DNA from: a virus
Lineage: Duplodnaviria > Heunggongvirae > Uroviricota > Caudoviricetes
Direction: 5' to 3' (one strand)
Length of the DNA: 23,679 nucleotides
IMG/VR virus record: IMGVR_UViG_2724679073_000002
Both the position numbers and the translations under genes were made by a program. Under the pieces are notes generated by a model. The model saw only the letters and a program-made list of their open reading frames with translations, had not been told where the DNA came from and did not search any database. The stretch's first letter is position 1. Each line of letters begins with the position of its first letter. Below, piece after piece: positions 474 through 5,611 of the stretch.

Positions 474-3400
474 TCAGCTAATCGTGATGCCTGCAGTGGC
501 TTTCTTCATCACCACAACCAGCAAATCGCTGATACTTGCTGTGGGATACCAGTTATTTACCAGCCATGCTGACACCGAAAACTCCAGTGTCATGTGACCG
601 TGACCGGCAGGCATATCAATAACACCACTGTAAATCAGCGTATTATCCAGCGCGGTACGGTTATAAATTTCAGCACCGTTTTTCCGCACTATCAGACGGC
701 ATGAGGAGTAAATATCAGTATGCTCTTTCTCATGTTTAGCGCCGCTGAATGCCACCGCCGGAATAACAATCTGCCGGTCAAACGGCTGATCGTCATAAAC
801 CCTGACGGTAATGGTTCCTGATGGCCACCGCTCCGGTGCACGGGAGTCCCGGGGGAAAGCTTTGCCCACTGTTTTAACGAGATCGCCTTCAATCTGGTTC
901 GCGGACAATTTTCCCAGAACCCGACAGTTCTCGTTAATCGTGACGTTGTTGAGCGTCCCGGAGTTCGCATTCACGTTACCGCTGATATCGGCATTTTTCG
1001 CCGTCAGCCGCCCGTCCGGTGTCAGGGAAAATGCCGGAGGATTACCGCCGCTGGTAATGGTGGGAGCCGTCAGATATTTCAGGAACACTTCATTCATAAA
1101 TATCTGATCGCCCTGACCAACAAACATCGGCTTTGTGTTGCCATTCGCAGGATTAATCATCGCAATCCTGTCTGCCGCCAGCAGCACCTGACTCTGCATT
1201 CCTGCTGGCGTATTCTCAATACCGGCACCGATACCCGCAATATAAAGGCGTCCGTCCTGCATCTGCTGCAGTTTCACGGCCCACATGCTGTTCAGGTTAT
1301 TATTTGTATCAACCTGAACTTTCTGTATCTGCTGGATTGCCGCACTCTGATTTTCCAGTTTTTTATTGACGGTCTGCGTGATTTCATTGCTGACATTCGT
1401 AATGGACGTCCTGATTTCAGCCAGGTCCGGCGCAAGCTGACCGTTATCAATCTGCGTCCACAGCTCCTGGGCCAGATGTGTTTTCCCGATTTCTCCTTTG
1501 AAAAAATCCAGGTAACCTTCCGCATCATCGCTCGCCCGACCGACAGCCTCCACGAATGCCGATTTGCCAACAGTATTCACACTGCGGATATAAAAATAAT
1601 AATCATGGCCCGGTTTGATATTGATACTGGCAGCTATCCAGTACAGCGCCGAGCCAAGATAGCGGGCTGCGGTTTCAACCTGCCTGATATCCGCAATCCG
1701 CTTTTCCGAGAACCAGAACTCAAACTGTACCGTCGGGTCATAAACGGCAAGATGTGGCGTTGCGGTTATCTGAAAATAGCCCGGCGTCAGCTCAATCCGC
1801 GACGGTGCTGCCGGTGCGGCAATCCGGAAGGTGGTGGTGGCAGGTTCACCCTGCTGGCCATAGCTGTTTATCGCCCGCACCGTCAGGGTGTATTCCCCGA
1901 GCGGCAGGCCGCTGAAACGGTGCTCCGTGTCTGCGGTGATGGCGGTGGTCACCAGTCTGGCATCCGTTCCCTTACCACTGGTCAGGCGCAGACTGAAGCG
2001 CACACCCTTCACCACCCGCGGCGTGTCCCATTTCGCCTGCGCCAGATACTGGCCGTCAGCTGCGCTCACCTCCACCGTCAGGTGCTGCACTGCCGGTGGG
2101 ATGACGCTGTTCAGGGAACCTGACTGCGGCTCAAAGCGGGCACCGTTATCCACGATGGCTTCTTTTTCCGGTACGTGCTGCACCGCCGTGATGGCAAAGG
2201 TGCCGTCCGTGTTTTCCCGGATGGAGACACAGCGGAACAGGCGACGGCGCAGTGACGGCAGGGAGAGTCCCCACACCCCGTATGTCTCCACACCATCAGG
2301 CAGGGTACTGACCTGTATCCGGTCCGGCGCGGGGTGTGCGGTGATGTCCACACTCACCGGCTTACCGCTGCCGTTAATCAGGTTCACCGCCGATGTACCT
2401 GTCTCCGGCAGGGTAACCTCACGGTCCAGCGTCAGGGTGCGGGTGGCAGCATCAATGGACAGGACACGTCCGCCGGTCAGGGTCCCGGCATAGTCATTAT
2501 CACAGATTTCAATAATGTCACCGGGTGTGTGCCGCAGCCCCTGAGACCCGAGCGTGAAATCCACCGTCTGCGTTTCCAGCAGTTCGGTCTTTATCACCCA
2601 CAGTCCGGCACGGTGGGCCTGACCGCGGCTGGTACAGCCGAACGCGTCCATCTTCAGCAGGTTGCGTCCGTAGCGCAGTATGGCTTCCGGGTCTTCCACC
2701 AGTTCCGTGGAGGTCTGCCAGCCGTTCTGCGGGTCGGTGTAATTCACCTCCACCGCCGTGTGCCGGTCCTTCAGGGCACTGAAGCTGTAGCGGAATCCCA
2801 CGCCGTTATCATCCACCACCACATCGCTGTTGGTGTACGGCCACACCACATCCGACGGGCGGTCCTGAACGAACGTCAGCGTCTGACCGTTCCATACCGG
2901 CATACAGCGCATCGCAGAGCAGAAATCACTGAGAACGTCCCACGCCTTACGCTGTTGTGCCAGGTACGCATTAAAGGTCATCCGCGGCTCGGTCCCCCCG
3001 AAACCATCCGGGACCGTCTGGTCGCAGTACTGCCCGATGGCATACAGCGCCCACTTGTCCACATCCGCCGCCCCCAGACGTTTTCCCATGCCGTAGCGCG
3101 GGTGAGTCAGCATGTCCCACAGACACCAGGCCGGGTTGTTGCTGTATGCCGGTTTCAGACTGCCGTCCCAGATACCACTATACGTGCGTTTTTCCGGGTC
3201 ATAGTTTGACGGCACCTGGATGATGCGACCGCGGATATGGTAGTTCACCGTCATCTGCTGGCCGCCGAACTGCTCCGCATCCACCTGCAGCCCCACAATG
3301 GCCGTGTTCGGGTAGCACTGTTTCACATCGATGATTTCGGTGTATGACGACCACAGCGTCTTATTCTGCAGCTGGTCCGTGGTGCTGTCCGCCGTCTCCC

Positions 3401-3947
3401 TGACCATCCGGATGTTAAAGGGCCGGGGAGGCAGATTATCCAGAATCACCGAGGCCAGGAACTGTGAGGTGGTCTTGCCGTTAATGGTGACGTCCTTTTC
3501 TGTCACCCAGTTACCGTTACGCTGTAACTGAATCAGCAGGCGGACGGATGCCGGGTTACGGTCACCCTTTGAGGTGGTCTCCACCAGTGACTGCACCCCG
3601 AAGGTAACCCGCAGGCGGTCAATGTTCGCGGACGTAATGGTGCGCGTCACCGGTTTTGCCTTCGTCACTTCCACGCCCAGTCCGGTTTCAGCTCCGGAGG
3701 ACTCAAAGCCTTCCGGTGGTGTCTGCTCCTGCTCCCCGGCGCGCCAGACCGCCGTCACACCGTGTATCACGGGATTGCCGTCCGTGTCCGTCAGTGGGGT
3801 TTTGTTCACCAGAATACTCTGCAGTCCCTTCACCGGACCTTCTATCGGTCCCTCACCAATCGCATCAATCACGCTCATCATCTGCGTGGATTTGAGATTA
3901 TCCTTCGCCTCACGAGGCGTGTGTGCCTTACCGCCACCTTTTCCCAT
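474..3947 (-). CDS. J: Tail tip / host specificity protein J (central tail fibre), 1157 aa
   Basis: Full-length collinear similarity to lambda gpJ as recalled ([22 protein letters not shown]..., [116 protein letters not shown]); GGAAGG SD before the ATG. Confidence 0.95.
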
Positions 3948-4051
3948 ACAGCCTTCCCCTGAATAAATTAACCGCCACTTGCCATTCCGTACAGAAGTCG
4001 GATATCCTTCGCCCGAAAAGCATGAAACACATTTCTGCCATGCTAAAGAGA

Positions 4052-4086
4052 AACCCCGGTATCAGCAGATACCGGGGTTTTCTTTC
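4052..4086. terminator. Perfect 11-bp stem hairpin with T-rich flanks on both strands (bidirectional terminator-like)
   Basis: AACCCCGGTAT (4052..4062) pairs with ATACCGGGGTT (4069..4079); followed by TTTTCTTTC on plus and by TTCTCTTTAG on minus. Confidence 0.4.
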
Positions 4087-4152
4087 ATGCCCACCGATAA
4101 TCCTGTTGGTTAAAACCGGTAATGGCATAAAAATTCTGAATATCTTCACATT

Positions 4153-4180
4153 TTCACACACTGACTGTGGCGCTTATAAT
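4153..4180 (+). promoter_or_regulatory. Candidate sigma70 promoter (-35 TTCACA, 16-bp spacer, -10 TATAAT)
   Basis: TTCACA at 4153..4158 and consensus TATAAT at 4175..4180, reading toward the plus-strand terminator at 4252..4284. Confidence 0.35.
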
Positions 4181-4186
4181 TTCGCT

Positions 4187-4284
4187 GCGTTAGTGTTTTT
4201 TTGCCCGAGTAACAAAAACAACTCCTTAACATTGATCTTCATTTGTCTGTCCCCGCAGCTCCGCGATCACTGCGGGATTTTTTT
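4187..4284 (+). ncRNA. Candidate small RNA (~100 nt) in the I-J intergenic insertion
   Basis: Bounded by the candidate promoter and a strong intrinsic terminator; no ATG in 4187..4250 on the plus strand; contains CA-rich tract GTAACAAAAACAAC. Prediction only. Confidence 0.3.
4252..4284 (+). terminator. Rho-independent terminator (plus strand)
   Basis: Stem CCCGCAG (4252..4258) / CTGCGGG (4270..4276) followed by T7 (4278..4284); the minus-strand flank is not T-rich, so it is plus-specific. It ends 5 nt before the convergent I stop codon. Confidence 0.6.
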
Positions 4285-4289
4285 ATGTT

Positions 4290-4970
4290 TTATCCCTGTC
4301 GCCCGATAACCACGACCGTTCCGCCCCCGCCTTCATCACGGGTGCTGATGTCCTGGGATATACGGCGGGAGCCAACCAGCATTTCCCCGTAAGGCACCGG
4401 CATCGGGTTCCCCTGGGCAATCATGTTATCCAGCGAGGAAAAGTACGTGTTCTGTCTGCCGTTATCCGTTGCGCGGTAATCCGGTGTTTTTGCCTTCGGG
4501 GCCAGCATCTGGGCCACACCGCCCAGAATCATGCTGGCTCCAAGTGAAAACAGCATCGTGGTGGCAGAAAAACCACCGGCTGCCAGGGCTGAACCCCATA
4601 ACGCCATTGATGCCCCGGCAGTGAAGAAAGAGCCCACGATGGCTGCCGCCCCCAGCACAATCTGCAGTCCACCCTTTCCGGCCCCGGCCAGTCGCGGCAC
4701 AATATGGATGACCGTTCCCTCACCCAGCTGTTCGTGAAGACGGGCGTACACCGCCTCCGGTGCCGTGTCATAACCGGCAATACGTATCTGGTACCAGCCT
4801 TCGTTCATCTGACGGCGAAAGCCCGGCACCTGTAACGACAGCGCCCGGATGGCTTCCGCTGCCGTGTTCACATACAGGCTGAGGCGGCGGCCAAATCGTT
4901 GTAAATCCCCGTGAAGGCAGATGCGTGCCAGTGGCGGTGACGCCAGACAGAATGCGTTCGTCGTTGCCAT
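4290..4970 (-). CDS. I: Tail assembly protein I, 226 aa
   Basis: ARICLHGDLQRFGRRL...YQIRIAGYD...VIHIVPRLAGAGKGG...FSLGASMILGGVAQMLAPKAKTP...QNTYFSSLDNMIAQGNPMPVPYGEM matches lambda gpI as recalled; position between K and J. Confidence 0.9.
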   Translation of the reverse strand: MATTNAFCLASPPLARICLHGDLQRFGRRLSLYVNTAAEAIRALSLQVPGFRRQMNEGWYQIRIAGYDTAPEAVYARLHEQLGEGTVIHIVPRLAGAGKGGLQIVLGAAAIVGSFFTAGASMALWGSALAAGGFSATTMLFSLGASMILGGVAQMLAPKAKTPDYRATDNGRQNTYFSSLDNMIAQGNPMPVPYGEMLVGSRRISQDISTRDEGGGGTVVVIGRQG

Positions 4971-5611
4971 TTTTCGGAATACCTCTCCCGTTTACTCAGT
5001 TGTTCAGGCAGATGGTGAAGCAGCTCACCGTTGCCGCAGTAAATGGCGGCATGGTTCGGTACCGAAGCACCAAAGCAGCACAGCAGAATATCGCCCGCCT
5101 GTGCAGAGGACAGGGGCACCCGGTAAAAGCCGGTGACCGCCATATTGTCCAGGTAAAGGTTCTGACCGTTGCGCCACCAGTCATCCTCGCGATGAAAATC
5201 CGGCATTTCAGTCCCCGCCAGATGATAAGCATCCCGGAACAGCGTGTAACAGTCCGTCACCCCGTGCTCAAAGCGCCGTCCTGTCAGATGTGGCACACAG
5301 CGGAATTTGTGAATGTCACCCCGGCAGACCAGCCACCAGGGCAGTGCGCTTTTTATCTGCAGCCGCCGGTCAGCCTCGCTCAGCCAGGGCAGCCCACCGG
5401 GATGACTGTGGACCAGTGCCACAATCTCCCCCTGCATCTCTGCCCGCAGCCAGTCTTCCGGTGCGATACGAAAATACGCCTCCGGCTCTGCAGAAATATT
5501 CACACAAGGGATATACCACTCCCCCTCCGACGTGCTTATCACGAAGCCGCACGACTCCGCAGGCGCACACCGCCGGGCATGCGCCAGAATCGCTGATTCA
5601 GTCTGTGTCAT
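4868..5611 (-). CDS. K: Tail tip assembly protein K (MPN/JAMM plus NlpC/P60-like), 247 aa
   Basis: Start chosen at MTQTESAILAHARRC (ATG 5611..5609), 10 nt after the L stop; the track ORF extends to 5872 but that part overlaps L. JAMM motif HSHPGGLPWLSEAD (H-x-H-x7-S-x2-D); 103-bp overlap with I, as I recall for lambda K/I. Confidence 0.85.
   Translation of the reverse strand: MTQTESAILAHARRCAPAESCGFVISTSEGEWYIPCVNISAEPEAYFRIAPEDWLRAEMQGEIVALVHSHPGGLPWLSEADRRLQIKSALPWWLVCRGDIHKFRCVPHLTGRRFEHGVTDCYTLFRDAYHLAGTEMPDFHREDDWWRNGQNLYLDNMAVTGFYRVPLSSAQAGDILLCCFGASVPNHAAIYCGNGELLHHLPEQLSKRERYSEKWQRRTHSVWRHRHWHASAFTGIYNDLAAASACM

Follow-up and report, generated by a model that had tools for sequence, protein, structure and literature searches.

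Several small RNAs (sRNAs) of Escherichia coli O157:H7 Sakai are encoded by its prophages. Three of them, EcOnc22 (prophage Sp15), EcOnc23 (Sp14) and EcOnc24 (Sp11), were listed by Tree et al. 2014 (Table S2) as homologous, Hfq-crosslinked plus-strand RNAs, and EcOnc22 appears at ~85 nt on a Northern blot and is destabilised in a delta-hfq strain (PMC4104026). The supplement of Waters et al. 2017 prints reads from RNase E cross-linking, ligation and sequencing of hybrids (CLASH) assigned to EcOnc22/23/24 (PMC5286369), and a 2021 review lists the three as 'function unknown', with targets unknown (PMC7873438); no later paper on them was found in the literature after that review. The present analysis concerns a DNA stretch of 23,679 nucleotides from a Caudoviricetes virus (IMG/VR record IMGVR_UViG_2724679073_000002), called the window throughout. 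Its tail genes J (474..3947) and I (4290..4970), both on the minus strand, are separated by a spacer that carries a plus-strand transcription unit, and this unit is an undescribed allele of the EcOnc22/23/24 family, not a new kind of element.

Two other groups of prophage RNAs frame the comparison. AgvB and AsxR lie outside the tail region, at the moron site downstream of PR' (PMC4104026), and HnrS (EcOnc10/11/12) is a multicopy prophage sRNA that represses hha by pairing at the ribosome-binding site (PMC13502914). The PR' arrangement is seen in the Sakai loci L006-L008; the window unit lies instead between I and J.

A transcription unit in the I-J spacer

A sequence-only reading of the window had described a spacer of 342 bp, which the ends of J and I bear out, and had put the lambda spacer at about 60 bp, which is also correct: lambda I ends at 15444 and J starts at 15505, leaving 60 bp. 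Its three observations on the plus strand hold as well. A consensus scan returns the promoter TTCACA-16-TATAAT with 11 of 12 matches; the strong terminator near the convergent I stop ends 5 nt short of that codon, which reads TTA on the plus strand (4290-4292); and no ATG is found when 4187 to 4284 is read directly, from the predicted start to the terminator. Neither strand of the window holds another sigma70 match at 11/12 or above, and when the spacer was dinucleotide-shuffled 2000 times, such a match arose in 24 of the shuffles. The features exceed chance; a unit of the same architecture recurs at the same place in dozens of sequence-divergent alleles. The proposal of the sequence-only reading, a noncoding plus-strand RNA of ~100 nt with its own transcription, placed like a moron in the late operon, is supported: promoter elements and terminator are conserved across alleles, and the Sakai homologue is a detected Hfq-bound sRNA with CLASH fragments from the same strand.

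The description of the extra DNA as one insertion of 340 bp needs amending. The additional DNA is real, but similarity searches divide it into two separable modules, A (J-proximal, 179 bp) and B (I-proximal, 163 bp); the sRNA unit is module B only, and many phages have B without A. Coordinates are collected in Table 1.

Table 1. Features of the I-J spacer, in window coordinates; conservation is the mean over alignment columns in 26 alleles retrieved via the I protein
Feature	Position	Strand	Basis or detail	Conservation
I-J intergenic spacer	3948..4289	none	342 bp, from J and I gene ends	
Module A, J-proximal 179 bp	3948..4126	none	nearly invariant; adjoins different module-B alleles	
Hypothetical second plus-strand RNA	3979..4088	+	weak TTGCCA-18-TATCCT (3979-4008), 9/12 matches, then ~74 nt to the 4051-4080 hairpin	
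Perfect 12-13-bp hairpin, bidirectional terminator-like, between sRNA promoter and J	4051..4080	both	z-scores -6.7 and -6.9	
Module B, complete sRNA transcription unit (upstream block, promoter, RNA, terminator)	4127..4289	+	present alone in phages without module A; allele of EcOnc22/23/24	
Upstream block, A/T-rich UP-like tract and CRP-like palindrome	4127..4152	+	alignment of the 26 alleles	0.97
Sigma70-type promoter	4153..4180	+	-35 TTCACA 4153-4158, 16-bp spacer, -10 TATAAT 4175-4180	0.87 (-35 hexamer); 0.94 (-10)
Predicted sRNA, ~98 nt	4187..4284	+	start set 7 nt past -10; end at the terminator U-tract	
First six transcribed bases, GCGTTA (predicted 5' end)				0.99
Predicted weak A-U 5' stem-loop, U-run 4196-4202 with A-rich tract	4194..4220	+	minimum-free-energy and centroid fold	0.73 (U-run and loop); 0.79 (A-rich tract)
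(ARN)5 tract AGU-AAC-AAA-AAC-AAC, candidate Hfq distal-face site	4208..4222	+	five consecutive ARN triplets	
Predicted single-stranded pairing region: CTCC, hexamer TTAACA (4226-4231), TTGATCTTC	4222..4240	+	unpaired in fold	0.88 (CTCC); 0.62 (hexamer after CTCC); 0.96 (TTGATCTTC)
Linker				0.66
Intrinsic terminator CCCGCAG, 11-nt loop, CTGCGGG, A, U7	4252..4284	+	scan, fold, conserved arms	1.0 and 0.97 (arms); 0.78 (loop; variable, with indels); 0.99 (A + U7)

Membership of the EcOnc22/23/24 family

Sequence comparison identifies the window unit as an allele of the catalogued, experimentally detected sRNA family EcOnc22/23/24, because a published CLASH fragment lies in its Sakai counterpart, the two units are 74% identical and the predicted size fits the Northern blot; the unit that the sequence-only reading could match to no named sRNA thus has a catalogued family. 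The alignment of module B with VT1-Sakai (Sp15) extends from the upstream block into the terminator and spans 163 nt at 74.2% identity (E = 5e-20). Other alleles are intermediate between the two, and a homologous unit occupies the I-J spacers of Sp15, Sp14 and Sp11. On the current Sakai record the published EcOnc22-24 coordinates fall in or beside these three spacers, on the strand opposite the tail genes (EcOnc22 on plus, ECs_2944 and ECs_2945 on minus).

The published coordinates refer to an older genome version, and the shift was calibrated by Rfam matches to AgvB and AsxR and then fixed at exactly +135 via the Waters supplement. With this correction the published peak covers the RNA body and terminator of the Sakai unit. 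The sRNA half of a CLASH hybrid, GCCTGAAAAATAACTCCATAACGTTAATCTTCA, is identical to positions 2153-2185 (+) of L003, the Sakai Sp15 locus, within the body of the counterpart of module B. The CLASH fragment match and the shift checked with AgvB and AsxR place the published EcOnc22-24 RNA at the I-J unit and not at another part of the spacer. With a start 7 nt past its -10 and an end at the last base of the U-tract, the Sakai RNA would measure 91 nt, in agreement with the ~85-nt band. Expression, size, Hfq binding and Hfq dependence have been shown by others for the Sakai allele only; gene architecture, Sakai homology, conservation pattern and non-coding status are established here by sequence and comparison.

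In Sakai, the stretch formed by CUCC and the variable hexamer (CCAUAACGUU) is the pairing part of a CLASH hybrid with yjbJ. The duplex with the yjbJ site is calculated at -22.7 kcal/mol for the Sakai allele versus -9.5 for the window allele, where the pairing is lost because the 5' stem-loop region and the hexamer beside CUCC differ.

The Tree 2014 and Waters 2017 coordinates lie ~135-140 bp below those of NC_002695.2 at the sites checked (1.27, 1.94 and 2.90 Mb), and EcOnc names mapped onto the current Sakai record without the shift land on the wrong feature. One table of the Waters supplement labels the EcOnc22 interval 'asxR2'.

Promoter region, RNA body and terminator

The best-conserved element of the promoter region is the upstream block, not the -35 hexamer. 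The block coincides with the position of an UP element and contains the palindrome TCTGA-ATATCT-TCACA (4135-4150), in which the half-sites are invariant and the centre varies among alleles. This is the sole match in the window to the CRP core TGTGA-N6-TCACA at one mismatch or fewer, agreeing at 9 of 10 core bases. Relative to the start deduced from the -10, its centre lies near -44.5, whereas class II sites are canonically centred at -41.5, a difference of 3 bp. Because the centre is off the canonical position and the block overlaps the UP-element position, the palindrome is treated as a candidate regulatory site and is not assigned as a CRP site. The -10 is kept in all alleles, as TATAAT, AATAAT, TATCAT or GATAAA; the constant part of the -35 is its leading TT only, the hexamer reading TTCCGG in Sakai and TTCTGT in others.

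The predicted fold of the RNA has three parts: a weak 5' stem-loop, in which the A-rich tract is partly paired with the 5' U-run; about 30 unpaired nucleotides that include CUCC-UUAACA-UUGAUCUUC; and the terminator. CUCC resembles an anti-Shine-Dalgarno sequence, and one allele reads ACCUCCUUA. The tract GTAACAAAAACAAC (4209-4222), the 'CA-rich tract' of the sequence-only reading, is A-rich and not CA-rich in other alleles, for example GAAAAAUAAC and AAGAAUAAU. Three or more consecutive ARN triplets stand at this position in 48 of 53 distinct alleles versus 3% of shuffles, and the A/C-rich tract is better read as a predicted (ARN)5 motif for the distal face of Hfq. The five ARN triplets and the U7 tail are the predicted Hfq features of the window allele.

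The terminator stem pairs 4252-4258 with 4270-4276 (7 bp, six of them G-C) and is followed by A4277 and T7 (4278-4284). On the minus strand the same hairpin has no following U-run, and therefore only plus-strand transcription would be stopped while late transcription is free to pass. A search of the spacer against Rfam gave nothing at the gathering threshold; up to E = 10 it returned sub-threshold chance matches only, driven by the terminator.

Alleles and distribution

Loci were retrieved in two ways, via the I protein, which does not select for the spacer, and via a 17-base pattern of the upstream block. They yielded 61 distinct units with the standard terminator motif and several with other terminators, 53 distinct RNAs and 77 distinct spacers. 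Read along the alignment, conservation follows the pattern of a gene transcribed from the plus strand, with variable inserts set in a fixed scaffold. Divergent alleles carry other terminator stems at the same position (CCCACAG/CUGUGGG, CUCCCGU/GCGGGAG and UCUCCCGU/ACGGGAGA), always with a plus-strand U-tract after them; the first of these stems represents one compensatory change from G-C to A-U. Among 34 loci retrieved via the I protein, the RNA region is ~73% identical to the window, versus ~97% for the adjoining 300 nt each of I and J. Allelic divergence is thus concentrated in the RNA body, a hot spot flanked by conserved genes.

Of 5426 complete E. coli genomes, 1445 match at least 80% of the spacer length, without an annotation in any of them. 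Module B itself occurs, at the sensitivity of blastn, at 5544 places in 1813 of the 5426 genomes (33%), again with none annotated; a positive genome holds a median of two copies and at most 11. The window allele is the most frequent one: 863 records match it at 99% identity or more. The family is present in the enterohaemorrhagic serogroups O157, O26, O111 and O145 and in sequence type 131 (ST131). BLAST found no module B beside the I homologues of 34-45% identity in Enterobacter, Pantoea, Rahnella and Pseudocitrobacter.

Three contigs labelled as other organisms, L009 (Streptomyces flavalbus), L011 (Parendozoicomonas haliclonae) and L018 (a metagenome-assembled genome assigned to Clostridiales), encode the E. 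coli prophage I protein studied here, with identities of 90-98%; the sRNA spacer accompanies it in L009 and L011, and a spacer of the sodC type in L018. Their labels probably reflect contamination or mis-binning of the assemblies.

Module A and the junction as a cargo site

In other prophages an unrelated segment of 75-99 bp takes the place of module A. The sequence-only reading had noted in this module an 11-bp hairpin with T-rich flanks; hairpin and flanks are real, and the stem is in fact 12-13 bp long. It pairs 4051/4052-4063 with 4068-4079/4080 around the loop AGCA, with T-rich runs after the stem on both strands, and is missing from locus L042 through a 47-bp deletion. Module A may also hold a second small RNA, which is only a lead taken from the letters themselves: its predicted fold has a 5' stem-loop and a AAAGAGAAA linker, and it would be antisense to the 5' leader of J.

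Short-type spacers, including that of Sakai, have an unrelated hairpin, CAGGCAYCC-N4-GGRTGCCTG, at the equivalent place (L003 2043-2064; about 30 spacers). It shows a compensatory change from C-G to T-A. Of the intermediates with a single change, more form a G-U wobble on the minus strand, which also carries the U-run (TTGTTTTTG). Wobble and U-run on that strand therefore mark it as a sense-direction terminator of the late operon just upstream of J, and it may insulate J from non-antiterminated or divergent transcription.

The junction receives other DNA as well. A cargo gene for Cu,Zn superoxide dismutase, sodC, lies antisense to the tail genes with its own terminator in L096, L093 and L018, where it stands in for module A and for the sRNA promoter block as far as the -10 but leaves the RNA body and terminator in place; the I-J spacer of L096 (3182-4032) measures 851 bp. 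Some spacers have two promoter blocks, ~179 bp apart in L104 (9950/10129), L159 (4152/4331) and L179 (7424/7603) and 471 bp apart in L145 (4544 and 5015). Each such spacer holds two sRNA units, which differ from one another both in RNA body and in terminator stem. An insertion sequence (IS) has entered the promoter spacer in L150, where an IS3-family transposase frame starts right past the -35 region; L130 has an insertion of 1.26 kb in module A, likewise taken for an IS, and L164 a J-proximal segment of 992 bp.

Proposed mode of action and alternatives

Module B is probably a genuine sRNA gene of the EcOnc22-24 family, transcribed independently and associated with Hfq. For the trans-acting seed mechanism taken alone, belief and doubt are about evenly balanced. 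In the proposed scheme, the gene would be transcribed in the lysogen from its own sigma70 promoter, independently of late-gene expression, and the conserved upstream block, with its UP-like tract and CRP-type palindrome, would help or regulate this promoter. The one-directional intrinsic terminator would end the RNA, and Q-modified late transcription would pass it in the opposite direction. The RNA would bind Hfq through its 3' U-tail and (ARN)5 tract, leaving the unstructured stretch CUCC-[variable hexamer]-UUGAUCUUC free to base-pair with mRNAs in trans. The sites of pairing would most probably be ribosome-binding sites or their surroundings, given the anti-Shine-Dalgarno-like character of CUCC. 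Which targets an allele has would depend on its variable hexamer, and module A would contribute a bidirectional terminator hairpin that separates the sRNA unit from J. Expression of the window allele, its exact ends, pairing in trans, the seed and regulation via the palindrome are what we infer for this unit.

Several observations weigh against this interpretation. The fold of the RNA is no more stable than that of shuffles (z = -0.9), as is common for short sRNAs. The fold of the alignment supports the terminator only, the 5' stem-loop having no covariation support, and covariation evidence is thin, since the terminator stem hardly varies between alleles. The RNA belongs to no Rfam family. 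The -35 found by the scan is not conserved in other alleles, and by its coordinates the CRP-like site misses the canonical class II position, as described above. The CLASH hybrids of the Sakai allele with trans targets consist of 1-2 reads each. Diagnostic 16-mers of the window allele are absent from the Sakai CLASH tables, so that its experimental support is homology at 74% identity; those of four other alleles were also searched for in the Sakai CLASH supplement, where only the Sakai allele is present.

The RNA might instead be a cis-antisense regulator of the late operon, like lambda OOP, pairing with the I-J late mRNA or with leaky lysogen transcripts so that RNase III cuts and J is uncoupled from, or lowered relative to, I. 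Such a role is compatible with one in trans and, as an account of the RNA, is unlikely. In its favour, complementarity between the RNA and the late transcript is complete and begins 5 nt past the I stop codon, and this self-antisense duplex (-58 kcal/mol) is the only strong one in the window; the unit always sits at the I-J junction in the same orientation, and in spacers of either type it is separated from J by a terminator hairpin in the sense direction. A search of the 23.7-kb window for a second seed target found the self-antisense site only; duplexes with gaps, at -22 to -28 kcal/mol, form at the J ribosome-binding site and at other places but are unconvincing. However, the family is detected in uninduced lysogens, in which late genes are silent, and there it is Hfq-bound and forms hybrids with chromosomal mRNAs. 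A purely cis role would need neither the Hfq (ARN) motif nor the conserved CUCC/UUGAUCUUC core, and the RNA overlaps neither coding sequence nor the ribosome-binding site of J, which is ~230 nt away.

That the unit has no dedicated function, being a decaying remnant of cargo or an insulator or terminator block at a recombination hot spot of the tail module, is very unlikely. The sodC cassette, tandem units and IS insertions do mark the junction as a site of cargo and recombination, and the sodC variant has lost the promoter block and retained the RNA body. Against this, alleles that diverge by ~27% in the intervening sequence still share the promoter elements, the RNA 5' end, the core motifs and the terminator, and 33% of complete E. 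coli genomes have retained the unit, at up to 11 copies. The Sakai allele, moreover, is expressed and Hfq-bound (PMC4104026).

The sequence-only reading had suggested a sponge, in which the CA-rich tract of the spacer RNA pairs with sRNAs that have GU-rich seeds, and had named GcvB for a check; AgvB titrates GcvB R1 in this manner. AgvB and AsxR, from the same strains, are indeed prophage anti-sRNAs with ARN motifs (PMC4104026), and the window allele contains AACAAAAACAAC, yet an anti-sRNA role of this kind is highly improbable. Of the core sRNAs, GcvB was the one covered: pairing was assessed in 18-nt windows against the R1 seed, with shuffles and AgvB as a positive control, whole-length RNAduplex having given meaningless long duplexes. 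The best GcvB R1 duplex of the window RNA reaches -11.4 kcal/mol, a value equalled by 37% of dinucleotide shuffles, whereas the AgvB control reaches -19.2 (3.5%). Because its duplex, unlike that of AgvB, is no better than shuffles, the GcvB-sponge reading is rejected for the window allele. The GcvB target consensus CACAACA is not in the window RNA, the tract is not CA-rich in other alleles and is partly paired in the predicted fold, and the RNA has no match to the Rfam models of AgvB and AsxR, which do find the true genes in Sakai.

Least probable of all, to the point of being negligible, is a protein-coding moron, whether the minus-strand mini-ORF (open reading frame) MKINVKELFLLLGQKNTNAAKL (4246..4178), a minus-strand ORF of 66/77 aa or a plus-strand ORF of 128 aa (3923..4309): the frames exist, and one is annotated as a hypothetical protein in ON416862 (phage ASU11), but none is conserved, the mini-ORF (MKINVKELF...) keeping its ATG in 23 of 53 alleles, with ACG or ACA in 22, and encoding no conserved peptide, the 128-aa frame being open in eight of 77 distinct spacers, the 77-aa ORF running through the terminator hairpin and overlapping the start of J, and the 128-aa and 77-aa ORFs having no Pfam or PHROGs match. 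A test for a type I toxin-antitoxin pair was negative likewise, the ORF opposite the sRNA having a start in only those 23 alleles and its peptide being neither conserved nor hydrophobic. The ASU11 annotation, ASU11_gp9c, corresponds to window positions 3928-4128 (-), inside module A, and is probably a false gene call.

Significance

The RNA family of the I-J spacer is among the most widespread unannotated prophage genes in E. coli and is often multicopy. Genome annotation and Rfam miss it completely; it is known only from supplementary tables, and one allele, that of Sakai, has been studied experimentally so far. The family is directly testable: the window allele is the commonest, alleles combine a common scaffold with a short variable stretch that is the pairing site in Sakai, and the promoter has a conserved palindrome. 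If the seed model is true, swapping the hexamer should swap the targets. Experiments would be worthwhile on account of the allelic seed, the conserved palindrome and the multicopy state.

A broader idea, speculative and rather improbable as it stands, is that the I-J junction is a dedicated sRNA cassette site. A constant and possibly cyclic AMP-CRP-responsive promoter and an equally constant Hfq/terminator scaffold would surround a short hypervariable seed that is swapped or diversified between prophages. A poly-lysogen, which may hold as many as 11 copies, would then have a set of regulators that differ by allele and act either on different host mRNAs or on the late transcripts of competing related phages.

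Comparison with known systems

The features of lambda OOP and of morons are established knowledge. Like the spacer RNA, OOP is a short antisense RNA convergent with a phage gene; OOP, however, overlaps the 3' end of cII, whereas the spacer RNA stops 5 nt short of I. With lambdoid morons the unit shares an autonomous promoter-to-terminator organisation inside the late operon (Juhala et al. 2000 as cited in PMC4104026). Classical morons differ in being protein-coding and usually co-oriented with the late genes; the spacer unit is non-coding and antisense.

AgvB and AsxR resemble the window RNA in other respects. They are prophage-encoded and Hfq-bound, have an ARN motif, an intrinsic terminator and both conserved and variable parts, and are expressed in lysogens (PMC4104026); the spacer RNA is alike in these points, Hfq binding and expression being predicted for the window allele. 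They differ in their site, the moron position downstream of PR' rather than the tail region, and in their length of 51-60 nt. Identity of the spacer RNA with either was rejected on locus, on covariance models (RF02702 and RF02703, no match up to E = 10) and on GcvB pairing. At the Sakai loci of AgvB and AsxR, Rfam STnc100 matches L006 328-520, L007 1623-1828 and L008 638-847, directly convergent with the two genes; this placement agrees with the published EcOnc27-STnc100 overlap.

HnrS was also considered as the spacer RNA and rejected, being a different gene with another sequence and other coordinates. It too is a multicopy, late-region, Hfq-associated prophage sRNA with an intrinsic terminator, and it offers a model for the mode of action. 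It is 66 nt long, lies at another late-region site (in Sp10, ~5 kb from AgvB1) and is enriched in strains positive for the locus of enterocyte effacement, whereas the spacer RNA family is also common in ST131 and commensal-type genomes.

The closest relatives remain EcOnc22/23/24. The window unit differs from them in the 5' stem-loop region and in the hexamer beside CUCC (UUAACA in the window, AUAACG in Sakai), in a near-consensus -35 that is weak in Sakai, in a predicted RNA of 98 nt versus 91 nt, and in an unrelated J-proximal module of 179 bp versus ~84 bp. It shares with them the I-J spacer slot and the strand antisense to the tail genes; the upstream block, the position of the -10, the RNA 5' end GC(G/A)UUA, the ARN tract, CUCC and a motif of the UUAAUCUUC type; and the CCCGCAG/CUGCGGG terminator with its U7 tail.

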